Below are positions 1 through 16,142 of a stretch of DNA of 64,000 nucleotides, piece after piece (the first letter of the stretch is position 1; each line of letters starts with the position of its first letter). The stretch is from a virus, in IMG/VR virus record IMGVR_UViG_3300042946_000263, positions 2,330 through 66,329 of that record. The stretch is one strand, 5' to 3'. A program made the translations under genes and the position numbers. Under the pieces are notes generated by a model. That model saw nothing but the letters and a program-made list of their open reading frames with translations. It did no database searches and was not told the origin of the DNA.

Positions 1-63
1 GATCATTGAATTACGATGGTTGTAATGCCTGTGGCGAAGAAGGCAAATATTGGGAGCCTAGAG

Positions 64-297
64 ATGTTTGAACCGACTGAAAAATTGATTCTTGGTAGCG
101 TATTCTTTGGATTGGTTGTGCTTATTGGTGGTGCTATCTGGTTAGATAGTGGTCATCGAGAACAGGTAAATCAAGAGTCTATTCGCTGCGCAGAGGCTGG
201 TGGTGTATATCTCGAGAGAACTTATACTGTCGGCAAGAATCAAACAGGCCATCTATATACCTGTGTATCTAGAGACGTAATCATTAAGGATTTTTAA
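64..297 (+). CDS. small membrane-anchored hypothetical protein
   Basis: ORF 16..297; likely start MFEPTEK at 64; N-terminal hydrophobic helix and two Cys. Confidence 0.6.
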   Translation: MFEPTEKLILGSVFFGLVVLIGGAIWLDSGHREQVNQESIRCAEAGGVYLERTYTVGKNQTGHLYTCVSRDVIIKDF

Positions 298-414
298 TAT
301 GACACACGAAGATGCAATTTTTATTATCTCATCACTGCATTATATTGAGACAGTGCTGACATCTATTTGGTTGTTTGTTGGAGTAATCATGATCATGATT
401 GCATGGAAGAGCTG

Positions 415-639
415 ATGCCTGCTAAGATCACTAAGACCAGTCCATTTACCAACATCACTCGCACGATGCAGTTTGAACGCTACGATCAGGATGAGTTTGA
501 CTCACGCCTATTAGCATGGCGCCGAGGCGAGAAACTTATTCAAGAGGCATTCCCGGAACTGTCTGCTAACGCTCGCGAGTTCATTAAGAACGGTATTACT
601 ACAGAGGAATGGGACAAGTATATGGGCGGAGACGACTGA
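415..639 (+). CDS. conserved phage hypothetical protein
   Basis: MPAKITKTSPFT...LIQEAFPELSANAREFIKNGITTEEWD resembles a widespread small phage family; start at 415 preferred over TTG 367. Confidence 0.65.
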   Translation: MPAKITKTSPFTNITRTMQFERYDQDEFDSRLLAWRRGEKLIQEAFPELSANAREFIKNGITTEEWDKYMGGDD

Positions 640-740
640 CCTGTGATGTGACCAACTCGCTGACCAACTTAATGACCAACGAGTTGACCTATCGTCTGAC
701 CTAAGTGATTACCTATCGGTTGACCAACAATTATTACCTA
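637..740 (+). repeat. 12-bp-period direct repeat array, core TGACC(A/T)A
   Basis: TGACC/TTACC at 637, 649, 661, 673, 685, 697, 709, 721 (exact 12-nt spacing), with a ninth copy at 734. Confidence 0.9.
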
Positions 741-1014
741 CGCCAAGAGCAGCGGCGACTCGGGCAACTACCGATGCTTTATTCCCACCAATGTGCCATT
801 CATAATCATATACAGGCGTAGTCGGCATTTTCCAGTCATATATGGTAGCGACTTCGCCGTCGGCAAACTTAATAATCCATTCTGAATTAGTCTTATCGCC
901 GCCATTAAGCGGCTTACCAAACGCCTCGACCAGATCAGCGTAGGTCGTATTAACATAACCAACCAGACCAGTCATATAGGCGTCGTCATAGTTATTCGTA
1001 ACGGTATACTTCAT
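709..1014 (-). CDS. conserved early phage hypothetical protein
   Basis: 101 aa ORF with AGGAG RBS; motif TYADLVEAFGKP...DKT..EW...ATIYDWK...WHIGG typical of a phage family. Confidence 0.8.
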   Translation of the reverse strand: MKYTVTNNYDDAYMTGLVGYVNTTYADLVEAFGKPLNGGDKTNSEWIIKFADGEVATIYDWKMPTTPVYDYEWHIGGNKASVVARVAAALGVGNNCWSTDR

Positions 1015-1044
1015 GACCTATCTCCTGACCTATGGGTTGACCTA
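1014..1044 (+). repeat. second TGACCTA array (3 copies, 12-nt period)
   Basis: TGACCTA at 1014, 1026, 1038, spanning the stop codon, RBS and start codon of adjacent minus-strand genes. Confidence 0.85.
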
Positions 1045-1263
1045 GAACTCAGCTACCAACTTACCATTCTCAATAGAGATATAGATATTAGCAGTTTCAA
1101 TCTCGCCATCTAGATTCTCGTAGTCGATAGTATACACAATCGTACCGAGAGATGACTTATTATAAGAGGCAGAGATTATATCATCACCACCATAACCCGA
1201 TTCGGTTAATAAGTCAACCACATTTTCCGTAGTTAATTTAGTAAAGTCGGTGTTAATAAGCAT
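1042..1263 (-). CDS. acidic hypothetical protein
   Basis: 73 aa ORF, AGGAGAG RBS, promoter directly upstream. Confidence 0.75.
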   Translation of the reverse strand: MLINTDFTKLTTENVVDLLTESGYGGDDIISASYNKSSLGTIVYTIDYENLDGEIETANIYISIENGKLVAEF

Positions 1264-1287
1264 GTGTTCTCTCCTATGGTATAGTAT

Positions 1288-1315
1288 ATTATACCTTAAT
1301 TCCGGTAAAAGTCAA
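1288..1315 (-). promoter_or_regulatory. sigma70-type early promoter
   Basis: minus strand TTGAC-N17-TATAAT. Confidence 0.8.
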
Positions 1316-1318
1316 GCG

Positions 1319-1337
1319 TGACCTAGACCATGACCTA
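1319..1337 (+). repeat. third TGACCTA array (2 copies, 12-nt period)
   Basis: TGACCTA at 1319 and 1331, directly upstream of the -35 of the leftward promoter. Confidence 0.75.
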
Positions 1338-1598
1338 GTATGACTCCGATGCCTTAGTATCGATCAATCCGGCGTATAACTCATTATAAGGATTATCCCG
1401 ACGAATTAACTCCGCCTCGGCCAATTTGGTTTCCGGCATAATATAAGCGCCAGAAACACCAAAATTCCAGTAAATCAAATAGTGTAATTGATCGTCAGTA
1501 AACCGATCAATAGTAATTCTCCCCTGTTCTAATTTGTCGGCCATTTCATCAGTAATAGCCAACCAATTCTCGTTAATATCATCAGAGGTAGTAATCAT
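1335..1598 (-). CDS. hypothetical protein
   Basis: 87 aa ORF with AAGGAG RBS. Confidence 0.75.
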   Translation of the reverse strand: MITTSDDINENWLAITDEMADKLEQGRITIDRFTDDQLHYLIYWNFGVSGAYIMPETKLAEAELIRRDNPYNELYAGLIDTKASESY

Positions 1599-1621
1599 TA
1601 TAATTCTCCTTATTAACTAGA

Positions 1622-1858
1622 TTAGGCGAGTTGTTTAAGCGTATACATTTGACCGCCGTATATATCTTCGCCGTGAACGATATTAATCATATCGCCGTCT
1701 AGGACGATAGTAAACTCGTCGTAATAGCCGATAAGCGGATCGGCGGACTCACAACCGGCAAAGGCATCCCAGTCATATTTGTCGAACGGCTTAAACTCAG
1801 TCTTAGCCATAACAGAGAATAGCTCAGCTTGAGTCGGGTAGGTAAACGAAGCGGTCAT
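1622..1858 (-). CDS. hypothetical protein
   Basis: ORF 1622..1885; start MTASF at 1858 follows a GGGAG RBS. Confidence 0.7.
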   Translation of the reverse strand: MTASFTYPTQAELFSVMAKTEFKPFDKYDWDAFAGCESADPLIGYYDEFTIVLDGDMINIVHGEDIYGGQMYTLKQLA

Positions 1859-1891
1859 AGAGTCAACTCCCTTATCAATCATCATATTATT

Positions 1892-2051
1892 ATATTACCC
1901 CGATCCCCGAAAAAAGTCAACCATAGTAAAAACAACGACTTAGGAATAAGTCTAATGAAATCAGTCTCTTAGCACAGGAAATATTTTTAAAATAATTTTC
2001 TCCCCGTATGGCTCAGCTGGCGCTTGCTATTTTTGAGGTTTCGGGTATAAT
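1892..2051. promoter_or_regulatory. divergent early promoter pair with IHF-like site
   Basis: leftward TTGAC...TAATAT (1920-1892); rightward TTGCT-N17-TATAAT (2024-2051); AATCAGTCTCTTA matches IHF consensus WATCARNNNNTTR. Confidence 0.65.
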
Positions 2052-2076
2052 AAGAATATAACCTAAGGAGAAAACT

Positions 2077-2244
2077 ATGTCTTTCCGCGAATCCCTTATA
2101 AACTCTTTAAACGGTTTTTGCCTTAATTCCCCGTCGGACGGTTATGATTGGGGCGAATTATTTGATAAGCCGTTCGCCGAATTAAGCGAAGAAGAATTAA
2201 TTGAATTGAATATTCACTATTTAAACTACTTAAAGGGGGAATAA
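2077..2244 (+). CDS. small hypothetical protein (55 aa, below ORF-track cutoff)
   Basis: AAGGAG RBS; MSFRESLINS...YLKGE; first gene after the promoter. Confidence 0.65.
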   Translation: MSFRESLINSLNGFCLNSPSDGYDWGELFDKPFAELSEEELIELNIHYLNYLKGE

Positions 2245-2248
2245 TAAA

Positions 2249-2437
2249 ATGAATAAGCGGATTACTATAGAAAAGTATGGCGAATATTATAGAATAATCG
2301 CCGCTTTATATAATCCTGACGACTATTATCCGGTAAGGGTAGAGGAGATTGTTGAGGGAAAGGTATTAAGCGAGATTAAGGGAATACTATTCGAATTACT
2401 ACCGGATTGGAAAGATGTAGTAATAGAGGGGGAATAA
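2249..2437 (+). CDS. hypothetical protein, tandem paralog 1
   Basis: 62 aa; highly similar to the next ORF. Confidence 0.8.
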   Translation: MNKRITIEKYGEYYRIIAALYNPDDYYPVRVEEIVEGKVLSEIKGILFELLPDWKDVVIEGE

Positions 2438-2438
2438 A

Positions 2439-2621
2439 ATGACTAAGCGGATTACTATAGAAAAGAACGGCGAATATTATAGGATTATTGCCGCCCATTA
2501 TAATAATATAGAGCCAGTTTACATAGAGGAAATAGTAGAGGGTAAGGTATTAAAAGAAATTAAAGGCATATTATTCCAATTACTCCCGGATTGGAAGAAT
2601 ATTAAGATTGAAGGAGAATAA
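2439..2621 (+). CDS. hypothetical protein, tandem paralog 2
   Basis: 60 aa; shares KRITIEK.GEYYRIIAA...EEIVEGKVL.EIKGILF.LLPDWK. Confidence 0.8.
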   Translation: MTKRITIEKNGEYYRIIAAHYNNIEPVYIEEIVEGKVLKEIKGILFQLLPDWKNIKIEGE

Positions 2622-2622
2622 A

Positions 2623-2775
2623 ATGGTAGCTACCTATATCCTAATAGTATTCTTTAATTACAATCATTCAGGATTCACGGCGGAATTCTATACTAAGGAT
2701 AGTTGCGAGAAAGCGGGTAAAGCTATTATATCAACCGCCTATTCCTTTCCCAATTATATCTGTGTGGAGAAATAA
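2623..2775 (+). CDS. small hypothetical protein (50 aa)
   Basis: AAGGAG RBS; MVATYILIVF...EF.TKDSCEKAG...C pattern common in small phage proteins. Confidence 0.6.
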   Translation: MVATYILIVFFNYNHSGFTAEFYTKDSCEKAGKAIISTAYSFPNYICVEK

Positions 2776-2780
2776 CCCAA

Positions 2781-2987
2781 ATGAATTTATATATAACCGA
2801 CAGCGGCGTAGTAATCACCGTCAAATACATTATTGTAGTAGGCAAAGTAACATATAATGAAACCAGCGAGAAATACTATTTTACGGTAGTATTACACGGA
2901 CTGGATCATCATTATAATATAGATTTTGATACAGAGGAAAAAGCCACTGGCGAGCGTAATCGCCTTATTAGCCTTATGAAGGATTGA
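2781..2987 (+). CDS. hypothetical protein
   Basis: 68 aa ORF in operon, GGAG RBS. Confidence 0.65.
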   Translation: MNLYITDSGVVITVKYIIVVGKVTYNETSEKYYFTVVLHGLDHHYNIDFDTEEKATGERNRLISLMKD

Positions 2988-2988
2988 A

Positions 2989-3186
2989 ATGATTCTATAT
3001 CTATACGCAACTGGTATACTATTATCAATAATTACGCTGTTTATTATATTTGCTGAAGATAGGGGATTAGAATTAAAATGGTATAATTACTGGATTACTC
3101 TATTCTGGCCTATATTCACCCCACTGATATTCCTATATTTTGTCTTTCTAATATACGAGGAAAAGAAACTAAAGGAGTTCAAATGA
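2989..3186 (+). CDS. small membrane protein
   Basis: two hydrophobic segments, LFWP motif. Confidence 0.65.
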   Translation: MILYLYATGILLSIITLFIIFAEDRGLELKWYNYWITLFWPIFTPLIFLYFVFLIYEEKKLKEFK

Positions 3187-3395
3187 CTAATAAAGCCGAA
3201 CAAATAAATGATATAGAATTAGCAATTGACGCTACAATAGGTCAATTGTATTACCATTTATATCAATTACGCCAATTAGGAGAATACCAAAAGGAATATG
3301 ATATACTAGGAACGCTATCCCATATGCTAATTGAGGATAGGCAATTCCTAAGGGAGAAATATAGGGAGCATTTGGGGAATTATAATGACCTATAA
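3183..3395 (+). CDS. hypothetical protein
   Basis: 70 aa, AAGGAG RBS, ATGA overlap. Confidence 0.7.
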   Translation: MTNKAEQINDIELAIDATIGQLYYHLYQLRQLGEYQKEYDILGTLSHMLIEDRQFLREKYREHLGNYNDL

Positions 3396-3736
3396 TATCA
3401 AATTACCGAAGCGGATCGTATCCGTTCCTCCTATTCCTATTCCCCTATTACCTATACTAATACCGGAGTCGCTGGCGTTAATTATAATTACGGTTGGCTT
3501 GGCCGTGTATATTGGGGTAATTCACTTAAAATTAAAGGGGAATTAAAATCCTAATAATTAAATCGTAGCGAGGATTGGTCTGCGAAATTGCGAATTGCTG
3601 GGTCTGGCTTGGCCTTACTATTAACTATTATATAACGACTGACATACCAGCCCTTAATATTATTTAAAGGCTGATATACCAACCGCCAATTAAATTAGTA
3701 ATTCACTTTAATTCTCAGTGAATTGCTTTATTAGTA

Positions 3737-3931
3737 TTATTCTACCATTTCTATTATATTCGGGTCGCCGTTATAAAAAACGGTTATATCTAATAAATCG
3801 ACCATTTCAATATTCGGGTTATTTAATAAATCGCTAACAATTTTATAAGCCTCATCAATATTATTAACCTTATATTCTAATTCAAAATTAGAATAATAGA
3901 TTTCAAGTTTATTAGCGTTTTTCATTTTCAT
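3737..3931 (-). CDS. hypothetical protein
   Basis: start at 3931/3925 after GAGGAG RBS; promoter TTGCT...TATAAT upstream. Confidence 0.65.
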   Translation of the reverse strand: MKMKNANKLEIYYSNFELEYKVNNIDEAYKIVSDLLNNPNIEMVDLLDITVFYNGDPNIIEMVE

Positions 3932-4188
3932 TCTCCTCTTATATACTATTATTATATTATAATATTTGGCCCCAAATAGCAAGCTCTGGCTTGGCCATAG
4001 CAGCCAATTATTTTTTTCTTAGTTTACGTTCGTTGGGGGTTGACTTTTTCGCAAAAAGGGAGTACACTCTAGGGAGTGGTTTGTTGAGGTGGGCTGGCTC
4101 CCCAGAATGTTTACTATCGAATATAAACGAGCGGCGCGAGCCGTCCGAACGTAAACGAAAAAAAACGACAGTATGGCAGAGCTCCCGC

Positions 4189-4216
4189 TTGACATTTCTG
4201 CGGGATAGGGTATACT
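4189..4216 (+). promoter_or_regulatory. sigma70-type early promoter
   Basis: TTGAC-N17-TATACT; similar promoters at 4040, 4394, 4937, 6081, 6563. Confidence 0.8.
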
Positions 4217-4240
4217 GAGAATATAAGCTGAGGTGATGAA

Positions 4241-4390
4241 ATGAAAATATGGCTGATTGAGATCTCCGGGACTGCTATTCGTGGCTTCTCTACTAAGGCT
4301 AGAGCTGAGCAATACGCCCAGTGTATGCTCGAGGAAGATATGTACCTGCCTCATGAAATTGAAGTTTATTCTATCGAAGTCGACGAATAG
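4241..4390 (+). CDS. small hypothetical protein (49 aa)
   Basis: GAGG RBS after promoter; MKIWLIE...GFSTKARAEQY...IEVYSIEVDE. Confidence 0.6.
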   Translation: MKIWLIEISGTAIRGFSTKARAEQYAQCMLEEDMYLPHEIEVYSIEVDE

Positions 4391-4559
4391 GGGTTGACTT
4401 TCCACAGGAATACGGTATAATCATATATGAGAGGATGATGATATGACGAATCTTGAGATGCAGAACCTGATTGGTATGATGCTGGTGATTACTGGCTTGG
4501 CACTGTTTGTTGTTCTTACTCAAATCCTGGATGTAATCCAATAATCATCGGAGATGATA

Positions 4560-4721
4560 ATGACAGTATACGTAGTATTCTCTAATCATCCGGACTATAT
4601 CCAACCAATGTTTCGAATGATCTTTGCTAGCGAGGAAGATGCTGCGGAGTGTGTAAGAAAACGTAGTCAACATGCTGGTGATCAGGTATCCTATTGGTAT
4701 GAAGCCGAAGAGGTGATGTAA
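4560..4721 (+). CDS. small hypothetical protein (53 aa)
   Basis: GGAG RBS; MTVYVVF...IFASEEDA...YEAEEV. Confidence 0.6.
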   Translation: MTVYVVFSNHPDYIQPMFRMIFASEEDAAECVRKRSQHAGDQVSYWYEAEEVM

Positions 4722-4996
4722 TGATTAATACGTATGATCTCGCAGTGTTCTTCGATGGGTATAGCAGAGAATATCATAATATATCCATTGTGGCAGTCAA
4801 GCGGTATATTACCTATCATCGTGACACCAACAGCGATTATAAGGGTGCTGTATACATGATTCGCTGACAAGTCACTGATATCCCTAGAGGTGATGAAAAA
4901 AGTAATAGTAAACGAGAAAAAAGTCGTCCAGAGGGGTTGACAAATACCGGGATCCGGGGTAATATTAGAATATAAGATGAGAAACGGAGAAAACTG

Positions 4997-5488
4997 ATGT
5001 CTAAGCGTTCTGATGCTATCGAAATTATGAAGGCCAATGCTAAGCTCCCGATGACCGATGTGGTTAAGCTGATCGCCGACCGTATCGGTGTGACGGATGC
5101 TAACGCTAAGTCCTATTACCGCTATATCGTTCAGCATAACCTTGGCCCTGGCACGGTCGAGAAGTCCACTCGTGCCCCGAAGGCTAAGTCTGCTACGCCG
5201 AAGAGCTCTAAGCCCAAGCTCATCAAGGCCAAGCCGATCAAGCTGACGGATAAGCCCAAGGTTACGGACAAGACCGTGGAAGAATTGGCCGATATCCGTG
5301 CCAAGAACCTTCAGCGTCTCAAGACTGTCCACAAGAAGTACGCCAAGGGACAATATGCTGATGGTGCCAGTGGTCGTGAGCATACGGACGAGGAAGCCCG
5401 TGCAGAGGTGACTAACCTGGAGAACGAGCTAGATTCGTTTAAAGCCCCTAAATTTCTGAATATGTCAGACGTTCGGGCGCTTGTTTAA
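4997..5488 (+). CDS. putative HTH DNA-binding protein with Lys/Pro/Ala-rich linker
   Basis: own promoter (4937-4965) and GGAG RBS; N-terminal helical HTH-like segment (VVKLIADRIGVTDANAKSYY) then KAKSATPKSSKPK tract; biased codon usage. Confidence 0.7.
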   Translation: MSKRSDAIEIMKANAKLPMTDVVKLIADRIGVTDANAKSYYRYIVQHNLGPGTVEKSTRAPKAKSATPKSSKPKLIKAKPIKLTDKPKVTDKTVEELADIRAKNLQRLKTVHKKYAKGQYADGASGREHTDEEARAEVTNLENELDSFKAPKFLNMSDVRALV

Positions 5489-5795
5489 TCTTGTTGCCTC
5501 CAAGACGGTTCTTGTTGCCTATCTTGGAGGCGGCCATCTTGGCTCTCATCTCTGCCTTACGTGCGATCCAGGCAGGGTCTTGTTCTCGACGGATCATTGC
5601 TGCTCTTAGGTTGGCTTTGTGCTGTTCTGATGGTTTGGCACCACGTCTGTTCTTGATGGTGTAGCGATTGCCCTTGTTGGGTGATGTGATGCCCTTGGAT
5701 GTTGGAGGATGCTCTTCGAGTAGTTGTTTGATCGTGGGTTGATCAGTGGATGGTGCAATGCCTAGAGCGTGGGCAAATGGATCGTCTATATACAT
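5448..5795 (-). CDS. NUMOD3-motif protein, homing-endonuclease-like remnant
   Basis: SPNKG..., PSEQHKANLRAA, RAKMAASKIGNKN motifs; no nuclease domain visible; upstream CTAAATA late promoter and GAGG RBS. Confidence 0.6.
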   Translation of the reverse strand: MYIDDPFAHALGIAPSTDQPTIKQLLEEHPPTSKGITSPNKGNRYTIKNRRGAKPSEQHKANLRAAMIRREQDPAWIARKAEMRAKMAASKIGNKNRLGGNKIKQAPERLTYSEI

Positions 5796-5944
5796 GGGCT
5801 GATACCTCTCTATTAGGTGTTAGAGTCCATGGAGCTGCAACTCGCGATGGACGCTCTATTTAGTGGAATACTGAGTGCAGGCTCTTGATCCTGTGACTTG
5901 GTTGGGTGGATAGGCATGAAGGTAGGTTGATTGCTTATCCACCC

Positions 5945-5972
5945 ATTATACCTTATTGCGCATACAAGTCAA
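5945..5972 (-). promoter_or_regulatory. sigma70-type early promoter (leftward)
   Basis: TTGAC-N17-TATAAT on minus strand. Confidence 0.7.
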
Positions 5973-5978
5973 TATTTT

Positions 5979-6046
5979 AGTCGTTTACTATTGCTGGATC
6001 GTTGAGTCTGCGGACCTCCAGGTTCCAATAGTAAACGACTTTTTTC
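5979..6046 (+). terminator. long hairpin followed by T-tract
   Basis: 15-bp perfect stem AGTCGTTTACTATTG/CAATAGTAAACGACT then TTTTT. Confidence 0.55.
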
Positions 6047-6131
6047 TTGATTTATTTTCACGTTATGGTTCAGTTGGCGCTTGACATTTCCAGAGAATCA
6101 GGTATACTGAATATAGTTGATGGAGGGAATC

Positions 6132-6338
6132 ATGGAAGTGTACGTTGTTCTCTACGGTGTCCAATATGAGGGCATGGAGTTGCTGGGTGTGTTCTCGGAC
6201 TACGTGAAAGCTCGCGAGTTCGAAGTGTCCTATAAGGCCAAGTATGCGGTTGGCGACGACTGTGAGTGGGTGGAAATCCGTAAGGTCGAGCTCGACAAGG
6301 TCTATGGCCAAATCTTTGACGTGGGAGAGGTGCTGTGA
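6132..6338 (+). CDS. small hypothetical protein
   Basis: promoter 6081-6108, GGAGG RBS; MEVYVV...LLGVFSD..KA...IRKVELD pattern. Confidence 0.75.
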   Translation: MEVYVVLYGVQYEGMELLGVFSDYVKAREFEVSYKAKYAVGDDCEWVEIRKVELDKVYGQIFDVGEVL

Positions 6339-6904
6339 TGACCAACAAACCGCAGAAGATCATATCTGGTGACCTACGCTATGTCCGACGCCTGACCCGT
6401 GAGTGGGTTCATGCTGGTTACAGTATAGTCAAGACCAAGCAATGGTCTGATGGCAAGTACACTGTGGTCTTGGAGCGGAAGTGATGGAGGATCGGTTTCT
6501 TCCACTCTATCGTGCTCTGATGCACGCTCAAGCTCTGGGTGTTTGTACTGAGACGATTTTACTTGACTGTGCGGTCCATTTTTGGTATAATGGAAGCATA
6601 GGTGAATATTACGGTTCAGCTTATGTTCGAAGAAAGGCAAGAGGTGCATGATGGTGGACTTGAATGTGATTGGCAATAGCGTGGCTCTGTTCCTGTTGGG
6701 GTTCGCATACGGGATCATGATCGATCTCTATGTGGACATGGTTCGCTACAGGCGGAAGTGGAAGGATCGTGCATAAAAGTGGTCCTTTAGGAAATTAGGG
6801 AAATTGGGTCGGGTCCCCCGAGGCGTAAGCGGAACGGAAAATCCAAAAATTTCCGTGCAAAAATTTTTACAACTGGAAAGTCGCAACAGGAGCAACAGGA
6901 CACT

Positions 6905-7102
6905 ATGGCATACATTGAAGTTAATCTAAGCGAATTTGAAGACATGGATCTTGTTGACGAACTTCAAGATCGAGGCTTCACAGTCATTAATGGAGAGTTG
7001 GGAGATGTCAAGGAACTTCAAGAACTCTATAAGGATTACAAGACCTATGGATTCAGTGATGACTTTCGTAGGCTTCTAGAGAAATTCTTTGAGGAGATGT
7101 GA
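6905..7102 (+). CDS. hypothetical protein
   Basis: 65 aa; IEVNLSEFEDMDLVDELQDRG motif common in T4-like phages. Confidence 0.75.
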   Translation: MAYIEVNLSEFEDMDLVDELQDRGFTVINGELGDVKELQELYKDYKTYGFSDDFRRLLEKFFEEM

Positions 7103-7103
7103 T

Positions 7104-7334
7104 ATGGCACTACTACCAGTTAAGTGTAAACCCACAGAACTTTATGTAGAGCGAACATTGGCTGGTGAGTTTACATGGCTAGTCTATAATAAAGTCAATG
7201 GTCTTATTGTAGCAGCCACCTACGATCGTAACATGGCCGAGACTATTCTCAGTGGTATTAAAGTCACTCATTATTACAGCGACGACTATGGTATCACCGA
7301 AGTCTGGAAGTCGCCCGAGCCTATGATTGAATAA
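7104..7334 (+). CDS. hypothetical protein
   Basis: ORF 7089..7334, start MALL at 7104 after GAGGAG. Confidence 0.65.
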   Translation: MALLPVKCKPTELYVERTLAGEFTWLVYNKVNGLIVAATYDRNMAETILSGIKVTHYYSDDYGITEVWKSPEPMIE

Positions 7335-7363
7335 ATATTTCTTTACATCAAGAGGTATTATCC

Positions 7364-7660
7364 ATGGCCGAGGTAGAGTCAAAATTAGTCACAATAAGCA
7401 AAGATGCACACAAAGAACTGATTAAAAGATCAGATATGCTTCATGCTCTTATTCAGGTTGGATTGAAGCATTGGGCACATTATCAAGAAGCATTAGATTT
7501 GGTTGGTAATCAAGTTCCTGCTAATATGCCTGCCTATGAGCCAGAGCCTATTGTAGAGCGTGGCCCTCCAGTTGAACCAACGGCAGAGGAAATTGCCGAG
7601 CTTCAACAAGAAGGCGGTATAGCTATGGTTCCTCCATCTGATGTGCCGCCACCAGTGTAA
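7364..7660 (+). CDS. hypothetical protein, Pro/Glu-rich C-terminus
   Basis: 98 aa; GAGG RBS; AATAAATA upstream. Confidence 0.7.
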   Translation: MAEVESKLVTISKDAHKELIKRSDMLHALIQVGLKHWAHYQEALDLVGNQVPANMPAYEPEPIVERGPPVEPTAEEIAELQQEGGIAMVPPSDVPPPV

Positions 7661-7677
7661 AATACGGAGTCTATATT

Positions 7678-7953
7678 ATGCATAATCTTACTATTGTGAT
7701 CAAGAAGGATATTACCTGCAACTTCTCAGCTGATCAGTGGGGTCTACTTACAAATACATTCCCTCGTGATGAGATCGAGGAAGTTGCTAACAAGTTGAAT
7801 AGTCGCCTGAATGATTATGTCAACAATGATTACTCCAAGAAAGATACCCATGATGGGATGTTCAATTATCTTTCTCAGTGGACTCGTTATGGCGCCTTCG
7901 ACTCAGAAGTTCGTGGCTTTCTTGATGTTGTTCTAGAGGAGATCTATAAGTGA
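7678..7953 (+). CDS. hypothetical protein
   Basis: 91 aa, GGAG RBS. Confidence 0.7.
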   Translation: MHNLTIVIKKDITCNFSADQWGLLTNTFPRDEIEEVANKLNSRLNDYVNNDYSKKDTHDGMFNYLSQWTRYGAFDSEVRGFLDVVLEEIYK

Positions 7954-8255
7954 AACCAGAAATTAAGATTTCAATGGAATGGGAAGGCTACGACAAGCTC
8001 TTCCTCGATATGCTTCTTGAAGGTTATGAAACAACCTACTGGGCGTTTAGGGATGCTCAGAATGATATTATGAAAGATCCTGTTAAGTATGACTTTAAGC
8101 GTGAGGATGTGCAAGATAGCTTAAATGTTCTCAGCGCCTTCGAAATTCTTGCTGACCACTATACTTCTCGGGATGACCATGTGCCTTTGCTAAAAGATAT
8201 CCGTGACCGTATGGACGCTAAAGCAAAAATTGCGAAAGGAATGTCAAATGGTTGA
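7950..8255 (+). CDS. hypothetical protein
   Basis: 101 aa, GTGA overlap, GAGGAG RBS. Confidence 0.7.
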   Translation: MKPEIKISMEWEGYDKLFLDMLLEGYETTYWAFRDAQNDIMKDPVKYDFKREDVQDSLNVLSAFEILADHYTSRDDHVPLLKDIRDRMDAKAKIAKGMSNG

Positions 8256-8439
8256 TTTTACGACTAAGACTAATGAAGAGCTCTTGGCTGAATATGATCG
8301 TCTCTGGCGTCGCCATATGTATTATATGGCCGCTGAAGGTAATTGGTCTGCTGAAGCCAAAGAACGTGGTGAGTGCGAAAAAGAATATTGGGCTTGTATT
8401 AAGGAGCTAGATGATCGTGGGCTGGAATATTCTAAGTGA
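8248..8439 (+). CDS. hypothetical protein
   Basis: start MVDF at 8248 within ORF 8203..8439. Confidence 0.6.
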   Translation: MVDFTTKTNEELLAEYDRLWRRHMYYMAAEGNWSAEAKERGECEKEYWACIKELDDRGLEYSK

Positions 8440-8638
8440 TACCAGAGAATACGAAATTGTGACGGAGGATCCGGTGACCCTGTCGGACGGCTTGGCTGTT
8501 TCTCAGTCCGCTTCATTATATATTTCGAAGAACGTCTCTCCCTCTGTTGCTGGTTTAATAAGCCAGTATATGGCTGCTGGGATGATTAAGGTAAAAGTGC
8601 ATAAACTAAAGAAACGTCGTGATTGGGTTAGAGTATGA
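8411..8638 (+). CDS. hypothetical protein
   Basis: 75 aa, AAGGAG RBS. Confidence 0.6.
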   Translation: MIVGWNILSDTREYEIVTEDPVTLSDGLAVSQSASLYISKNVSPSVAGLISQYMAAGMIKVKVHKLKKRRDWVRV

Positions 8639-8844
8639 TTGATCGTAGAACTGGCGAAGTTTGGTTTATGAGCCGTGTGGCTTATAGGAATTTCGCGACG
8701 AAGTCGGTGCTACCTTTGGGGCCAGTCCTACGGTTGCATCGCCATAGTGACTGGGGATGGCTCTGTAGTTATAGGACTTATGCTGCTTATATTAAAATCG
8801 TTAATCGTCGCCGTAGACCGTCTCTTTTAAAGAAGAGGAAATAA
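8635..8844 (+). CDS. basic hypothetical protein
   Basis: 69 aa, ATGA overlap. Confidence 0.55.
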   Translation: MIDRRTGEVWFMSRVAYRNFATKSVLPLGPVLRLHRHSDWGWLCSYRTYAAYIKIVNRRRRPSLLKKRK

Positions 8845-9425
8845 TGCCTCTTATAGAGAAATACGATGCTGTAAATGATTCTTTGTTTAGGAAAGCTAGG
8901 GATATTATTTTTTCTGATAATTTTCCTTGGTATTACGTTGCTGCGACTGCCTATACTGAGAATGTTGACCAGTATGAAACTCTCTATAATGGTAGCTTTT
9001 ACCATCTGGCCAGAAACTCTGAAATTGCTAATACTCTTGAAGATTGTTTATTGGTTGCCGCTGACAGAGCAGGTGTTGCTGTAAACAAAATTCATCGTAT
9101 TCGTATTGGTATGATTCCAATTTGTCCTGTCGTTTCCGTTAATCCTCCGCATGTTGATATGGAATTTCCTCATAATGTTGGGTTGTTGTATATGAACGAC
9201 AGCGATGGCCATACGCATCTCTACAACGAGAAATATGATTGTAATTATGAGAAAAATCACAGCGGGCAGTATTATATCGAAGTACTAAACAAAAAAGTGA
9301 CCATCAAAGAGATAATTCTTCCTGCAGAAAATAAAATGGTATTTTTTGATGGTTTGACTTATCATTCTAGCTCGCCTCCTACGAAGACAAAACGTAGGAT
9401 CGCTGTTAATTATGTTTTCGATTGA
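8844..9425 (+). CDS. 2OG-Fe(II) oxygenase (FPWYY family)
   Basis: FPWYY; PHVD (HxD); LYMNDSDG.T; FDG..YHSS; RIAVN. Confidence 0.85.
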   Translation: MPLIEKYDAVNDSLFRKARDIIFSDNFPWYYVAATAYTENVDQYETLYNGSFYHLARNSEIANTLEDCLLVAADRAGVAVNKIHRIRIGMIPICPVVSVNPPHVDMEFPHNVGLLYMNDSDGHTHLYNEKYDCNYEKNHSGQYYIEVLNKKVTIKEIILPAENKMVFFDGLTYHSSSPPTKTKRRIAVNYVFD

Positions 9426-10010
9426 CTTTTTTACATTTCCAGGGTATTATTAAAATATGATGAAATGAGGGAATGATGGAACTTGAACATATCTATGCCA
9501 AAAAATTGGCTCTTATCATGGAAGAATATATAAAAGGTAATATTGATTCCGAAGAGTACCTAATCGAACTAGAACGGATTGAAGATTGGTATAAGGAAAA
9601 TCTGAATGCTACAAATAGCAGAAATTGACTTTATATGGTTCATGATATATTTGGGCATGATAACAAGTGTATTGACTCTTGGGATCGTATTGTATGAATT
9701 GATTTGGGGCAGTAATGAATCTTAGCGCCGAAGTAAAAAATGTTGGCTCGGGTATACTTTTTGTAGTTTACAATGATGGCAAAAAGATATATACTCACAT
9801 TGTGACTACAGAAATGTTGGAGAAAGCAAATGGGCAAGTTCAAGAAGATGCGCAAAACGATGCGGAAGCTGAGGTATGATTATATCGTGCAGTTAGCAGG
9901 ATGTAAAGAAGTCGATAAGCATATTTTCTTGAAGTCTCGTATCGATCTTTTAGAGCATCTTTTGTTCGAAGCCTCTATGATTGAGTTTACTTCTAAGAAA
10001 GAAAAGAAAA

Positions 10011-10190
10011 ATGGACAATAACATGATCTGGTTTTGGACAAATATGCTTTTGGCATTCGTTAATGCCTATTATGCATTGTCTGGAAACACTCCTTATCCT
10101 CGATTAGCAGCTTTTGCCTTCGGAATTTGCTTTGCAGCAGCGATGTATTCCCTCCATCTCTTCCTAACAGCAGGAGTAACAAATGGCTAA
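10011..10190 (+). CDS. small membrane protein
   Basis: two TM segments within ORF 9981..10190. Confidence 0.55.
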   Translation: MDNNMIWFWTNMLLAFVNAYYALSGNTPYPRLAAFAFGICFAAAMYSLHLFLTAGVTNG

Positions 10191-10371
10191 AGAAAAAAAG
10201 TACACACAGTCTAGACTTTTTGAGTTCAAGCCAGCAGAAAACATCACAGAAGCCGAAATTATTGAGTTATCAGAGTTAATTCGTATTGGAGTAAGCGGAG
10301 AAATACTTGACAAAGCGTCTCCGAGCCTAAAAAAGCACTTTTTTGAGGTAAAAGACAAAAAAGCGGCGTAA
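10183..10371 (+). CDS. hypothetical protein
   Basis: 62 aa, AGGAG RBS, ends in AA. Confidence 0.7.
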   Translation: MAKEKKYTQSRLFEFKPAENITEAEIIELSELIRIGVSGEILDKASPSLKKHFFEVKDKKAA

Positions 10372-10387
10372 TAAAAGGATATATATT

Positions 10388-10540
10388 ATGAAGTTGATTG
10401 CAGCGATTGTTTATATGTGTGTTGCCGGAGTTTGTACCGAACAGCACGTAGAAATTGAGCCGAAGGCGTGCCACATTGGCACTCTTCATGGTAAAGTAAT
10501 GGGCGCTGAAGCTAAATTCGGCGTTAAGTGTCAAGGATGA
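10388..10540 (+). CDS. small Cys-containing exported-type protein (50 aa)
   Basis: MKLIAAIVYMCVAGVC...C...GVKC; AAGGA RBS. Confidence 0.6.
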   Translation: MKLIAAIVYMCVAGVCTEQHVEIEPKACHIGTLHGKVMGAEAKFGVKCQG

Positions 10541-10770
10541 TCGAATATGTTCCAGTTATTCTTATCTGTAATTCTTTATTGTCTCCTATGGAATGCAAAG
10601 AAGGCGGTAGAGACACGACAATTGTTATGGGCGACCTCAAAAACACGCCGATGAGTTGTTTTCAGGAAGGTTACGAACGTTCCGCCAAACTTGCCTTTGC
10701 TCCAAAGGAAGGCGATCATTATTATGTTAAGGTAAAATGTGTTCCAAGGGATATGAGTCGTGAGCGCTGA
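10537..10770 (+). CDS. small Cys-containing protein
   Basis: VILIC...C...P.SC..EG...VKVKC pattern; ATGA overlap. Confidence 0.65.
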   Translation: MIEYVPVILICNSLLSPMECKEGGRDTTIVMGDLKNTPMSCFQEGYERSAKLAFAPKEGDHYYVKVKCVPRDMSRER

Positions 10771-11080
10771 AATTATACCTTTTCCAAAATCTAAAAAACA
10801 ACTAGAATTAGAAACAATGAGAGACTATGTGAGTAAGGCAAAGACTGTCATTGCGAGATCGATTGCTGAAGATATGAAAAGATATGATGTTCCTAATATC
10901 AAAGGAGCTCCTGTTAAACAACCAAAGACAGGAAAACAGTATCTAGATATCGTAAAACAGTTTATCGAACCAGATGATTATATGGATATTCTTTGTGGCA
11001 TCATGGATAAAGATCATTATGATGGCCTAGAGCGTCCCCTCCAAAAGATAATTGACGCTTACTATTCATTCAAAAAATGA
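10760..11080 (+). CDS. hypothetical protein
   Basis: 106 aa, starts SAEIIPFP. Confidence 0.7.
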   Translation: MSAEIIPFPKSKKQLELETMRDYVSKAKTVIARSIAEDMKRYDVPNIKGAPVKQPKTGKQYLDIVKQFIEPDDYMDILCGIMDKDHYDGLERPLQKIIDAYYSFKK

Positions 11081-11222
11081 GTGAAAGAAAAAGATACTTT
11101 CTCGAATTCTTATTCATTTGGGGATTCTTGACAATCCCTTATTTGGATTCAATATATATAACATCAGGTATGAAAGAATCTGGGGCCAGAATGGAGCTCC
11201 AGTGCCAAAATGAACCTAATAA

Positions 11223-11462
11223 ATGCTGGATACAGAAAAGGTCACACAAATGAATGAATGGCAATACACCAATCAATTTTTTGAAGAAGGTCGTGTTCAT
11301 TATTCACAGGGAGGTTTGGTAAAAGATTGTCCATATGATTATATGGACGTTGACCAGGATGATGAAAAGCAGGTACAGAACGAGCTATATCGCCAGAAAG
11401 AATGGCTCGCTGGTTTTCATTTCCAATTTAAAGAGTCTTTACTAGAAGCGAAGACTGCGTAA
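11223..11462 (+). CDS. ribosome modulation factor (RMF/CrpP)-like protein
   Basis: EEG...G...CPY...R..WLAGF resembles RMF G..AG..G...CPY...R..WLGGW. Confidence 0.55.
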   Translation: MLDTEKVTQMNEWQYTNQFFEEGRVHYSQGGLVKDCPYDYMDVDQDDEKQVQNELYRQKEWLAGFHFQFKESLLEAKTA

Positions 11463-11470
11463 TAAACCAT

Positions 11471-11662
11471 ATGGAGTATAAAATGGATGAAGTTGTAATT
11501 AAGTTTGAACTATCTTTTGAAGAAGCAAATGCTGTTATGTTTGCTCTAGGTAAGCTACCTTATGATCAGATCGCTCCTCTGGTCGAGAAGCTACGTCAGC
11601 AGGCTGCTCCTCAGCTGCCATCTCAGGGAGCTCCTGGCCCAGTCCCGGCATCCGCAGAATAA
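11471..11662 (+). CDS. hypothetical protein (paralog of 62311..62490)
   Basis: FELSFEEANAVMFALGKLPYDQ...KLRQQA.PQ pattern. Confidence 0.7.
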   Translation: MEYKMDEVVIKFELSFEEANAVMFALGKLPYDQIAPLVEKLRQQAAPQLPSQGAPGPVPASAE

Positions 11663-11666
11663 GGGC

Positions 11667-11695
11667 TTGACTTTTTTAAAACATTAGGGTATACT
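11667..11695 (+). promoter_or_regulatory. sigma70-type promoter
   Basis: TTGACT-N17-TATACT upstream of DUF932 gene. Confidence 0.75.
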
Positions 11696-11729
11696 ATGTA
11701 TATAATGAAGGTTGTGAAGGAGAACTCTA

Positions 11730-12707
11730 ATGGCTCATGAAATTGAATTCGTCGATGGTGTCGCTCAGATGGCTTATGTTGGAGCCGTTCCGTGGCATGG
11801 TTTGGGTAAGGAAGTCCCTGCGGATCTTACTCCCGAACAGATGCTCCAGGCTGCTGGCTTGGATTGGGAAGTCCGCAAATACCCATCTTTCGCCATCATT
11901 GACGAAAACGATCCGGATAGCGTTGTGGAGACTGGTCAGTCTGCTCTGATTCGTTCGAAGGATCGTAAACTACTTGACGTAGTTTCTGATGACTGGAATC
12001 CCGTCCAGAATCAGGAAGCGTTTGAATTCTTCAACGAATTCGTTATGGCTGGTGACATGGAGATGCATACTGCTGGCTCGTTGAAGGACGGCCAGATTGT
12101 CTGGGGATTGGCAAAGGTTAAGGAGTCGTTCGAACTCTTTAAGGGAGATCAGATTGATTCTTATCTTCTGTTCTCTAATTTCCACAAGTATGGCTTCTCG
12201 ACTGACGTTCGGTTCACCCCGATCCGTGTTGTCTGTAATAACACTCTTACTCTTTCTCTCTCGTCGACTGTAGAGCGTATGGTCAAGATTTCCCACCGTA
12301 AGCAGTTTAATCCTGCTAACGTGAAGGATATGCTTGGTATCGCTACTGACAAGCTCCAGAAGTACAAGGAGATGGCTCAGTTCCTTGGCTCTAAGAAGGC
12401 CAAGACTGAGTCTATCGTTGAATACTTCGAGCGTGTGTTCCCGCTGGCTGGTGCTACTCCGGAAGATAAGGCAGAGGGCAAGCGTTCTCGTAATGCAAAC
12501 ATCGCTCTTGGTGTTATTGACACTCAGCCTGGTGCTGAATACGCTCAGGGTAGCTGGTGGCAGCCATTCAATGCTGTTACCTTCATGACTGATCACGTTA
12601 TTGGTCGTTCGGCTGATACTCGCCTGACTTCCGCTTGGTACGGTTATAATAAGAACCTGAAGACCAAGGCTCTCGAGCTTGCTGTCGAAATGGCAGAAGC
12701 TGCCTAA
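11730..12707 (+). CDS. DUF932 / TIGR03299 phage-plasmid protein
   Basis: MAHE...PWHGLG...AAGLDWEV...PVQN.EAF.FF...TAGSL.DG...TPIRVVCNNTL. Confidence 0.9.
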   Translation: MAHEIEFVDGVAQMAYVGAVPWHGLGKEVPADLTPEQMLQAAGLDWEVRKYPSFAIIDENDPDSVVETGQSALIRSKDRKLLDVVSDDWNPVQNQEAFEFFNEFVMAGDMEMHTAGSLKDGQIVWGLAKVKESFELFKGDQIDSYLLFSNFHKYGFSTDVRFTPIRVVCNNTLTLSLSSTVERMVKISHRKQFNPANVKDMLGIATDKLQKYKEMAQFLGSKKAKTESIVEYFERVFPLAGATPEDKAEGKRSRNANIALGVIDTQPGAEYAQGSWWQPFNAVTFMTDHVIGRSADTRLTSAWYGYNKNLKTKALELAVEMAEAA

Positions 12708-12715
12708 TAAAAGAA

Positions 12716-12750
12716 TTGACATCCTACTTGAAATATAGTAGGATGTCTTT
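12716..12750 (+). promoter_or_regulatory. 11-bp inverted repeat acting as terminator and containing a promoter
   Basis: GACATCCTACT/AGTAGGATGTC then TTTT; TTGACA (12716)-N17-TAGGAT (12739). Confidence 0.65.
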
Positions 12751-12822
12751 TGTTGATACCGAAGCACATCGTGTGCCAGGATCAACAGTGTACGGGCAAT
12801 AGTCCAAACCTAGGAGAATATT

Positions 12823-14184
12823 ATGAATACGTATATTGACAAGAAGACCATCCGTCAGCTTATCGATCTGGCTTTGAACGGAAAACTTAATCCGGATCCT
12901 ATTTCTCAGCGTCCTGCTACCTCGTCTGGTCCTAAAAAGTCTCAAGAAATTGTTGAAGCTGTCCGCAGCGGCATTGGCGTTGGTATGATTACCGTTCGCG
13001 ATATTTCTAAAGATCCTGCTATGCAGGAAGTGTATCCAGGCGTCCATTATCTTGTGATCGATGGCGGTCATCGCATTCGTGCGTTCGCAGAGTTTTATAC
13101 CAACAAAATTAAGGTCAACGGTAAGTATTATACCGAATTTGAAGATACAAGTTTTCTATCTACTCAAATTGCCTTCGAAGTGATTACTTGCACTTCCGAA
13201 GAAGCTACTAAGATTTTCCGTACACGTAACAAGACTACGGCTGTTAACTTCATGGAGATGATTATGTGCGACGATGAGTCCGCTATTTGTCGTGAAGTTC
13301 GCAGTCGCACGAAGTATTATCGTGAATATAAGAACGACGTTCATCCTGTGTTCGAAGCCAAGCGTAATGCTAAGGGCGAGTGGACTCCGGAATGCTTTGA
13401 TAGCGATGTTAATCCTCGCCGTAAGTGGGACGAATACGTTTTTATTGCCATTCTAAAGGCAATTGGTGGCGGTAACGTCGATGCTGGCCAGCGAGAGATT
13501 GAAGCTCTTGTTCATGGAGAGTATGACGGGAAGAATCCTGTTACAAAGAATGTTCTAAAAACAGTTGATCGTTTCTTCAACGACGTTCATGACTTTAAAT
13601 ATCGTCGTGGTAAGAAACTAAACGGAGATATCTTCGCAGCTTTCCAGCTTGTCTGGTTTGCTCTCTACGAACAGAATCGCGATTTTACTTTCAATGATCG
13701 TTTTCTGTTCAAAGAACGTTTTATGGATGCTTATTCCAGGCTTACTGGAACAGGTAACAGCCTCTATAATGATAAGACTATCAATGTTGGAACTGAAGAT
13801 GAACCTGAATACGTTTTCGTGAAGGAATTCGTCCGTTGTAATACGAAGAATTTTTCGAACAGCGTTGTTCAGCGTCAGTGCGCTAAGATTATTCTTGACG
13901 AAATGGGTATCGATATTGGTATCACTTTCCGTGAAGCCAAGCGTTCTCTATCAACTGCTCAGCGAGAAGAAATGCTGGCCATTCAGGGATACAAGTGTGC
14001 GATTGATGGCGAGCCTTTGGAACTTGCCGATAGTGTTTGGGGTCATGATACTGCTTGGGCTAAAGGTGGGGAATTGAAGGATGGCGCTGTTATCCGTAAG
14101 TCTCACAATCGCGATATGGGAACTACTACTCTTGTTGAATATCGCATGATCCTAGATCTGCGTAAGAACAGAAAAGTAGCTTGA
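12823..14184 (+). CDS. DUF262 (ParB/Srx-fold) + HNH protein, GmrSD-like nuclease
   Basis: PISQR, VIDGGHR and IFRTRN match DUF262 QR/DGQQR/FxxxN motifs; C-terminal C...GHD.AWAKGG...HN HNH-like domain. Confidence 0.75.
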   Translation: MNTYIDKKTIRQLIDLALNGKLNPDPISQRPATSSGPKKSQEIVEAVRSGIGVGMITVRDISKDPAMQEVYPGVHYLVIDGGHRIRAFAEFYTNKIKVNGKYYTEFEDTSFLSTQIAFEVITCTSEEATKIFRTRNKTTAVNFMEMIMCDDESAICREVRSRTKYYREYKNDVHPVFEAKRNAKGEWTPECFDSDVNPRRKWDEYVFIAILKAIGGGNVDAGQREIEALVHGEYDGKNPVTKNVLKTVDRFFNDVHDFKYRRGKKLNGDIFAAFQLVWFALYEQNRDFTFNDRFLFKERFMDAYSRLTGTGNSLYNDKTINVGTEDEPEYVFVKEFVRCNTKNFSNSVVQRQCAKIILDEMGIDIGITFREAKRSLSTAQREEMLAIQGYKCAIDGEPLELADSVWGHDTAWAKGGELKDGAVIRKSHNRDMGTTTLVEYRMILDLRKNRKVA

Positions 14185-14231
14185 CAAACAATCAAACGAG
14201 TAGTATAATATAAAAATAATAGGAGAAAACA

Positions 14232-16141: not shown

Positions 16142-16142
16142 T

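Follow-up and report, generated by a model that had tools for sequence, protein, structure and literature searches.

The window analysed here is a stretch of 64 000 nt, bases 2330–66329 of a 66 329-base virus contig (IMG/VR record IMGVR_UViG_3300042946_000263; completeness estimate 40%), and its source is an uncultured freshwater phage, a distant T4-like myovirus. An island of 13 genes lies at 709–3931: four genes are leftward (709–1014, 1042–1263, 1335–1598 and 1622–1885), eight are rightward (2077–3546) and one is again leftward (3737–3931). On the sense strand of this island the dinucleotide CA is avoided, and the avoidance is strand-specific, frame-independent, cistron-specific and evolutionarily maintained. 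We attribute it tentatively, with somewhat less than even confidence, to purifying selection on the transcript of each cistron, which a CA-preferring single-strand nuclease probably exerts; the nature of this agent, a nuclease with RNA as its substrate, is what we infer from the features of the bias described below.

The 13 genes contain 62 sense-strand CAs, whereas 136 are expected from base composition. The deficit survives control for amino-acid composition and genome-wide codon usage, since 129.7 CAs are expected when the proteins are re-encoded with the genome's own codon usage (synonymous resampling), and since C|A at codon junctions occurs 21 times versus 54.9 after codon-order shuffling. 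Genes were called as longest open reading frames (ORFs), and the background set for codon comparisons includes some wrong-strand ORFs in 4–7 kb; a repeat with strand-restricted gene calls gave the same result. Four-fold degenerate Ala, Pro, Thr and Ser codons are NCA in 16 of 159 cases in the island versus 1588 of 4965 in the background (P = 1.7e-10), and His and Gln together are also rarer in the island (25/908 versus 966/20016, P = 0.003).

The bias had been noticed in a sequence-only reading of this DNA, based on hand counts, and these counts were reproduced. On the + strand a single CA is found in 2041–2495 (61 C; shuffle mean 21.9; 0 of 2000 mononucleotide shuffles as low), one in 2041–2460 (55 C; shuffle mean 19.7) and one in 3401–3642 (shuffle mean 12.8). 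In 3726–3966 there is no TG on the + strand (shuffle mean 8.3), and TG is scarce in 1080–1920 (19 versus a mean of 43.0), where CA is normal (53 versus 58.2). By comparison, the lowest CA count among 1183 segments of 455 nt in 4400–64000 is 6. The bias flips with gene orientation and tracks the mRNA-like strand, on which CA is low in both orientations, as that reading had it; its statement that TA and CG are abundant on the coding strand also stood, with observed/expected ratios (o/e) of 1.26 and 1.45, respectively. The corresponding values for CC and CT are 1.35 and 1.08.

CA and its mirror image TG do not behave alike. In codons ending in a pyrimidine (NNY), C is used in the island in 21 of 167 cases before A (0.13), 24 of 57 before C (0.42), 84 of 166 before G (0.51) and 39 of 95 before T (0.41), whereas in the background the proportion of C, P(C), is 0.33 before A (1061/3206), 0.24 before C, 0.31 before G and 0.21 before T. 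The resulting odds ratio (OR) for C|A in the island is 0.17 (Fisher, P = 1.6e-14), while that for T|G is 0.69 (P = 0.12). Both comparisons concern sites under the same coding constraint, which makes the bias strand-specific. Sense TG is mildly low in the island, both overall (148 versus 196) and at junctions (82 versus 105).

Phase and junction profiles were obtained from 49 island genes pooled from five phages. The CA ratio in the three codon phases is 0.68, 0.46 and 0.34 (background 1.00, 1.22 and 1.13). At junctions before A, the ratio is 1.00 for A|A, 0.91 for G|A, 0.34 for C|A and 1.39 for T|A. In NCN codons A falls to ~0.1 and C and G are each about doubled. Since only C|A drops, with A|A and G|A unchanged, and since NCN codons gain both C and G, the signal is a loss of CA and not a preference for TA or CG. 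This bears on the idea that the genes are tuned for expression or mRNA lifetime, i.e. that they are UpA/CpG-rich, rare-codon genes whose possibly toxic takeover proteins are made briefly or sparingly, low CA being a by-product. T|A (1.39) and C|G (1.47) junctions are indeed raised over their background values (0.93 and 1.05), and unusual codons (ATA, AGG, CGG, CCG and TTA) are favoured while AGA is avoided despite a phage tRNA-Arg(TCT). However, a preference of this kind would not leave A|A and G|A as they are with only C|A lowered, nor let C gain as much as G in NCN codons, and the preference for C|G is weak (P(C) of 0.51 before G versus ~0.41 before C or T); we consider such tuning quite unlikely as the cause.

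The way in which CA is removed is informative as well. NCA codons are replaced by NCC, NCG or NCT, and NNC codons by NNT ahead of A; the base of CA that is replaced is whichever is synonymous, so that a single context-specific mutation process fits poorly, and the pattern indicates selection on the dinucleotide and not one type of mutation. Under strand-biased mutation, CA would be turned into TA by deamination that accompanies transcription or by some other lesion of the non-template strand while it is exposed. The bias does track the non-template strand in both gene orientations, the genes lie behind strong promoter-like sites, and TA is enriched. Yet C is not depleted in its other contexts (CC, CG and CT, above) and the A of CA changes too, giving NCC or NCG. 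CpA>TpA deamination as sole cause, which the sequence-only reading had left as an option, can thus hardly be upheld, all the more since genes of one operon differ (see below), and we regard mutation of this kind as very unlikely.

Every NCA and every CAN context is depleted, the island/background ratio being 0.25 for ACA, 0.25 for CAG, 0.36 for GCA, 0.42 for CAA, 0.49 for CAT, 0.56 for CCA, 0.60 for TCA and 0.67 for CAC. Avoidance of ACA alone is therefore not supported, nor is the suggestion that the avoided motif is the ACA of MazF-type interferases. The depletion in all three phases and its strand specificity likewise argue against tRNA supply and ribosome-dependent toxins as the cause. TGCA is missing from the island, which the dinucleotide deficit explains (Markov expectation 1.9). 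Inside codons, sense TG at positions 2–3 is somewhat low (0.77 versus 1.20 in the background).

Relatives were found via homologs of a flanking gene, 4997–5488, which gave 12 loci. Four distinct phages (L031, L033, L034 and L037) share the island arrangement, i.e. a leftward block, a rightward block and a single AT-rich leftward gene, 1–3 kb upstream of this homolog, with 35–72% amino-acid identity between island orthologs and with gene content varying among relatives. The comparison with related phages that the sequence-only reading had proposed showed the same bias: the C|A OR in the relatives' islands is 0.12–0.18 (all P < 1e-7), while in the downstream genes of the same loci it is 1.02–1.23. 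Synonymous divergence (dS) between orthologs is 0.95–2.6 or saturated. As the bias is kept at a dS of about 1 or more, it is actively maintained and not passively inherited. Over 16 gene families, the CA o/e of one ortholog also goes with that of the others (Spearman 0.90, P = 1.5e-6). A sense CA o/e below 0.5 is found for 9 of the 227 ORFs of G002, a relative that is 98% complete, with eight of them at 151.9–160.6 kb; six are contiguous in the island, two lie at most 7 kb away and one is near the other contig end. This locality, together with the strand asymmetry, argues against an avoidance of CA of the restriction type.

Homologs of the first island gene (g1) in other phages are mostly CA-normal or CA-rich (o/e 0.87–1.80 at 25 of 26 loci), and CA avoidance is therefore no protein-family property. 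A CA o/e below 0.45 was seen neither among 121 small ORFs from 13 loci of unrelated phages nor among the 81 ORFs examined in T4, which cover its first 50 kb; in T4, P(C) is 0.19 before A and before other bases alike.

The features of the island and the other CA-poor genes of the window are as follows (CA counts are observed versus expected, on the sense strand).

709–1014, − strand: g1, 101 amino acids, last gene of the leftward early operon; CA-poor, 6 vs 15.0; C|A:T|A 2:18; o/e 0.28–0.88 in the orthologs of four relatives
1042–1263, − strand: g2, 73 amino acids, acidic; CA 2 vs 9.9; junction 1 vs 5.4
1315–1288, − strand: g2's own promoter-like site, TTGACT-16-TATAAT
1335–1598, − strand: g3, 87 amino acids; CA-poor, 7 vs 14.1; orthologs in L031, L033 and L037
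1622–1885, − strand: g4, 87 amino acids, first gene of the leftward operon; CA 5 vs 15.1, z = −3.9
1886–2076, no strand: divergent promoter region between the operons, with promoter-like sites at 1920–1892 (−) and 2024–2051 (+)
2077–2244, + strand: g5, nearly CA-free, 1 vs 5.4
2249–2437, + strand: g6, CA-free, 0 vs 4.9
2439–3395, + strand: g7, g8, g9, g10 and g11; CA 5, 6, 12, 5 and 11 vs 8.0, 8.7, 11.0, 7.0 and 14.5
3385–3546, + strand: g12, 53 amino acids, hydrophobic; CA-poor, 2 vs 8.9
3547–3640, + strand: 3′ untranslated stretch (3′ UTR) of the rightward operon, 94 nt, CA-free, 0 vs 4.5
3597–3613: weak terminator-like hairpin within the CA-free 3′ UTR
3737–3931, − strand: g13, 64 amino acids, AT-rich (GC ~0.25); CA 0 vs 7.1
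4241–4390, + strand: extra CA-poor early gene; CA 3 vs 8.1; C|A:T|A 0:7; NCA 0/10
7950–8844, + strand: second CA-poor cluster, four abutting or overlapping genes, o/e 0.66, 0.30, 0.48 and 0.34

The sequence-only reading had placed the bias at 1042–3990 and its end near 4.2 kb. The island begins at ~700 instead, as g1 belongs to it, and within its limits the bias holds overall without being evenly spread. In the rightward operon CA o/e spans 0 to 1.0: g9 (2781–2987) is CA-normal, with 12 CAs and an o/e of 1.0, and g7, g8, g10 and g11 are intermediate, so that genes in 2439–3395 are weakly depleted or not at all. Almost devoid of CA are g5, g6, g13, g2, g12 and g4. As for the right-hand limit, the bias does not just end there: 4241–4390 and the four genes at 7950–8844 are CA-poor too.

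g4 is CA-poor in all four phages that have it (o/e 0.34 in our phage, and 0.30, 0.37 and 0.35 in the other three); o/e is 0.13 (L033) and 0.14 (L031) in the orthologs of g5/g6 (2077–2437) and 0.14 in the L033 ortholog of g13, a gene in which CG reaches an o/e of 2.9. g6 and g7 are tandem paralogs (2249–2437 and 2439–2621) with 76% protein identity and have 0 versus 5 CAs; at one site CCG is present in g6 and in the L031 ortholog, but g7 reads CCA. Directly before the second cluster, the gene at 7678–7953 has an o/e of 1.04, which contrasts with 0.30 for 8252–8410 in this series of abutting genes. No promoter-like site was found on the + strand between 6591 and 9247, and orthologs of the 7678–8844 genes keep the same CA status, gene by gene. 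Inequality of this sort among cistrons of one operon (1.04 to 0.30 in 7678–8844), with status kept among orthologs, is a further point against strand-biased mutation.

Along the genes the depletion is even (0.44–0.54 in all fifths), with no positional gradient. The CA-free 3′ UTR ends at ~3640, and the next 96 nt (3641–3736) contain 6 CAs versus 6.1 expected. The spacers of the leftward operon are not CA-poor, which again is not what mutation on an exposed strand would give; 640–708 has 9 CAs versus 3.4 expected, and the few sense-strand CAs of this operon are located in its intercistronic spacers. They are carried by spacers that hold arrays of a short repeat.

637–727, + strand: TGACC(A/T)A array, 7 copies with exact 12-nt spacing, after g1
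1014–1044, + strand: TGACC(A/T)A array, 3 copies with exact 12-nt spacing, between g2 and g1
1319–1337, + strand: TGACC(A/T)A array, 2 copies with 12-nt spacing, between g3 and g2

The repeat copy that adjoins g1 lies between the Shine-Dalgarno sequence and the start codon of this gene. The arrays are kept at the same intergenic places in L031, L033, L034 and L037, and L032 has an 8-copy array.

Selection on the transcript is the explanation that we favour, within the limits of confidence stated at the outset. Differences from cistron to cistron within an operon are natural if each coding sequence must stay whole, and an RNA-level agent is favoured for this reason as well as by the CA-free 3′ UTR and the confinement of the leftward operon's CAs to intercistronic spacers. 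Under this hypothesis, most of the 13 cistrons and several other early cistrons would have been purged of sense CA by continuing purifying selection. The agent would be a single-strand-specific endonuclease with a preference for CA, belonging either to the defence of the host or, as a shut-off RNase, to the phage itself, and it would act during the period when the CA-poor genes must be expressed; CA-rich RNA would be cut while a CA-poor cistron stayed whole, and the CA-free 3′ end would shield the terminator. The avoided motif, CA on the strand that occurs single-stranded, is what avoidance of the target of a Can2-like nuclease predicts. Circumstantially, a phage tmRNA and an end-healing phosphatase of the PNKP type (both described below) are tools for cleaved RNA and would be in keeping with RNA cleavage during infection. 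The proposal of target-site avoidance made in the sequence-only reading is thereby retained in part: the avoidance is on the sense strand, independent of frame and selection-like, while ACA-only avoidance and deamination drop out.

Several observations weigh against this explanation. The CA-preferring nuclease is a postulate. Predicted mRNA structure gives the remaining CAs no shelter: in predicted folds they are no more base-paired than other dinucleotides (0.463 versus 0.435 unpaired). The phage tmRNA has a normal CA content (o/e 1.28), and the phage tRNA is not CA-poor either. Many neighbouring early-region genes behind sigma-70-like promoters have normal CA; being early is thus not a sufficient condition, and it must be assumed that cistrons differ in timing or need. 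The low sense TG inside codons would not be accounted for by a purely RNA-level, CA-specific agent. Finally, the correlation of CA status between orthologs is weak when restricted to the island (rho 0.27, P = 0.10), and the relatives are not independent evolutionary samples.

The main rival places the agent on DNA. In this hypothesis, which we hold to be unlikely, thymine in TG would be oxidized and further modified after replication, and genes that must be transcribed at once from the injected, modified DNA would avoid modified T in their template strand; template TG is sense CA, and the strand asymmetry would be explained by the template strand counting more than the non-template strand. A Tet_JBP dioxygenase is encoded in both near-complete relatives, G001 (86%) and G002 (98%) (E 2e-25 and 2e-24, respectively). 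In G002 it adjoins a glutamine amidotransferase, a weak amidoligase match and a PRA-PH protein, with P-loop nucleotide kinase 3 nearby, and no C5-methyltransferase was found among the 124 G002 ORFs scanned. According to the sections of a recent study covered here, phage T-dioxygenases act post-replication and sequence-specifically, their clade C1 is linked to glutamine amidotransferases (GATases) and P-loop kinases, and one representative of this clade, 5mYOX176, appears to prefer NTG, then NTA (PMC13229309, 2026).

Other evidence speaks against hypermodification. In the window's own contig (40% complete) no Tet_JBP was found, and beside the Tet_JBP gene no ParB partner was detected at E ≤ 0.05. 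A TG preference of the clade's enzyme would be an extrapolation from the NTG trend of one other enzyme, as given in the covered part of PMC13229309, and TA, the second-choice context of the TET/JBP enzyme reported there, is enriched in the island instead of avoided. Some CA-poor cistrons are preceded by CA-normal ones without a predicted promoter in between, so that the polymerase would meet the roadblocks anyway, and a CA-free 3′ UTR is not required. Among five phages with CA-normal g1 homologs, all of them fragments (15–82% complete), none showed Tet_JBP, an absence that carries no weight given their incompleteness. A bolder version of the hypothesis, which appears quite improbable, would also include the repeats: the clade would hypermodify T in TG, the modified T would brake the host RNA polymerase, immediate-early templates would be kept modification-free, and the TGACC(A/T)A arrays, which put template TG into the gaps of the leftward operon and beyond its end, would attenuate or terminate transcription when modified, as a phage equivalent of base J. 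Base J is glucosylated hydroxymethyl-U and stops RNA polymerase II in Leishmania.

The genome that carries this putative hypermodification cluster has other features of its own. Glycosyltransferases and a carbamoyltransferase are found elsewhere in G002 than the cluster, and G002 also has a gene of the AmoC/PmoC family (E 5e-109); the loci L040:2301-3062, L043:4958-7391 and L043:726-1265 hold the AmoC/PmoC gene and the hypermodification cluster. Freshwater methanotroph phages carrying pmoC have been described.

The last alternative concerns the origin of the genes. It sees in the island a foreign compositional relic, cassettes from a CA-poor donor spread by recombination at repeated promoter cassettes. 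The promoter cassettes are the following.

2006–2071: promoter cassette
4171–4236: promoter cassette, 76%
3974–3999: inverted promoter cassette, 81%; promoter of g13

They have the motif GTATGGC...GCTTGCTA/GACA...TATAAT/TATACT...AAGGAG, and the rightward block and g13 lie between them. In contigs from lake runs, joints occur at the cassette positions; the copies and joints suggest modular shuffling of early cassettes. The cassette, present three times around the rightward block and g13, the joints in lake-sample contigs, and a codon usage and GC content that differ from those of the rest of the contig could all be read in favour of a relic. However, the syntenic orthologs in four relatives are still CA-poor at the dS values given above, genome signatures are normally strand-symmetric whereas the CA avoidance is asymmetric, the g1 homologs adopt the local signature of each phage, and a CA-poor donor was not seen among the unrelated phage loci and T4 ORFs listed above. 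We find this origin very improbable. To the right of the island, a 20-nt inverted repeat (4013–4032/4146–4165, 90% complementary) flanks 113 nt between two promoter-like sites.

None of the 13 island proteins matches a Pfam or PHROG family, apart from two marginal PHROG matches for g8. The proteins are small, and on inspection by eye several seem acidic. AF2 models of g1 (pLDDT 94.5) and g4 (pLDDT 85) gave no Foldseek match at E ≤ 0.001, and VIA-align reached Z scores of at most 7.9 (a mitoribosomal protein) and 4.5, values that this tool also gives for models lacking a true counterpart. No relatives of g6 or g4 came up in scans of IMG/VR, and a protein atlas searched for g4 gave no usable match. 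A large protein collection contains 69 relatives of g1 and 26 of g4, all nameless or 'hypothetical'. That the island ORFs are anti-defence candidates, as had been proposed, is a reasonable guess from position only.

With regard to the source of the DNA, families of gp59, gp32, baseplate and tail-tube proteins are encoded in the window, and a gp6-like baseplate wedge protein has ~36% identity to its counterparts in Caulobacter phage Cr30 and cyanomyoviruses. Megablast of the island and of 4241–14000 against a phage collection gave no match, and there is no near-identical record in it. The segment 700–4240 is present almost verbatim in 20 lake or freshwater DNA runs, and no RNA run is listed among the sequencing runs containing it. 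Contigs identical at every base span 700–4240 in all four runs checked; this exact reproduction across runs shows that the segment is no assembly artefact. The left 12 kb contain 51 sigma-70-like promoter sites versus 33.4 expected, and 7364–7660 matches the T7 gp5.9 RecBCD-inhibitor family (E 3.6e-6, above the curated cut-off). The label 'early region' is fair for the left 12 kb because of this promoter density and the gp5.9-like RecBCD inhibitor.

A Rfam scan of 1–20000 found no family in or next to the island. The phage tmRNA mentioned above is permuted and lies at 16909–17255 (Rfam tmRNA_permuted 94 bits, alpha_tmRNA 75 bits; tag ANDNDASFGVYALAA); its alphaproteobacterial type hints at an alphaproteobacterial host. 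The tRNA-Arg(TCT) is at 18063–18139, and despite its presence AGA is used for 2 of the island's 20 Arg codons versus 52% elsewhere in the contig, AGG and CGG being used instead. The PNKP-type gene codes for a HAD phosphatase (contig bases 333–773, i.e. window −1996 to −1556, L051; E 5e-37) and is located 2.3 kb upstream of the island. Before it stands the end of a truncated gene, the counterpart of which in L033 codes for a 279-amino acid P-loop protein; at its synonymous sites, this truncated gene is poor in CA (C|A:T|A 1:11; NCA 0/20). Among the baseplate and tail genes, the − strand at 26542–27069 encodes a TnsA-like endonuclease N-terminal domain (E 9e-21). CGCG is nearly missing outside the island (8 versus 86.7 expected), GTAC (0.43) and CCGG (0.46) are also low in the contig, and ACGT is absent from the island (0 versus 5.9, Markov expectation); these deficits probably reflect avoidance of restriction sites.

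If selection against sense CA is confirmed, the bias would be a compositional footprint that exposes an unseen agent from sequence alone, be it a CA-preferring nuclease or a strand-sensitive DNA modification. Such a footprint would mark the cistrons that must work in the presence of the agent and so would offer a cheap route to counter-defence and takeover genes in uncultured phages. Two testable predictions follow, cleavage at CA or modified T in TG, and both concern an abundant group of lake phages.

The early genes of T4-type phages are known to be organized in modular cassettes, small ORFs flanked by promoters. The island resembles these in that its small ORFs lie in a variable region, with copies of an early-promoter cassette on their flanks, but it is unlike the first 50 kb of T4 in its avoidance of CA. 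T4 also provides a precedent for a phage-made RNase that determines, for each gene, how long its early mRNA persists: RegB, an endoribonuclease cutting GGAG in early mRNAs, as described in the part of PMC1702504 used here. A CA-preferring counterpart would fit the pattern found here; the RegB Pfam family had no match in three records of the clade, a search in which control genomes gave no match either.

Hypermodification has its own parallel. As in the T-dioxygenase systems of PMC13229309, TET/JBP genes of close relatives have GATase and P-loop kinase neighbours, and NTG is the complement of CA; in the sections of that work covered here, no effect on transcription or gene composition is described.

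For a nuclease acting on RNA, the specificity predicted by the avoided motif is that of the Can2/Card1 type. Can2, in what was available to us of PMC10783487, is a cA4-activated ancillary enzyme of type III CRISPR, a single-strand DNase/RNase with a preference for CA dinucleotides. The motif is the sole link, and the Can2 enzyme studied there comes from Thermoanaerobacter. The closest case of avoidance is that of ACA in single-stranded RNA coliphages, where, in the part of PMC12151602 consulted, under-representation is attributed by the authors to MazF. There, as here, a short target of an RNA nuclease is under-represented on the RNA-sense strand, and the finding is read as escape from an mRNA interferase. 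However, that avoidance concerns a trinucleotide, is genome-wide and is modest (relative frequency 0.64–0.92 in four phages of its Table 1), whereas in our double-stranded DNA (dsDNA) phage all CA contexts are affected, o/e falls to 0–0.4 and particular early cistrons are concerned. Avoidance of restriction sites (palindromes), of the kind seen in this contig for CGCG, GTAC and CCGG, similarly involves selection that removes the target of a defence system; it is strand-symmetric and genome-wide, whereas the avoidance of CA is specific to the sense strand and to cistrons. In a search of open-access papers and preprints, no dsDNA phage was found to be reported as avoiding a dinucleotide on the sense strand of particular cistrons. 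What is new with respect to known target-site avoidance is that a dinucleotide is avoided, on the sense strand, cistron by cistron, and that this is conserved across a clade.

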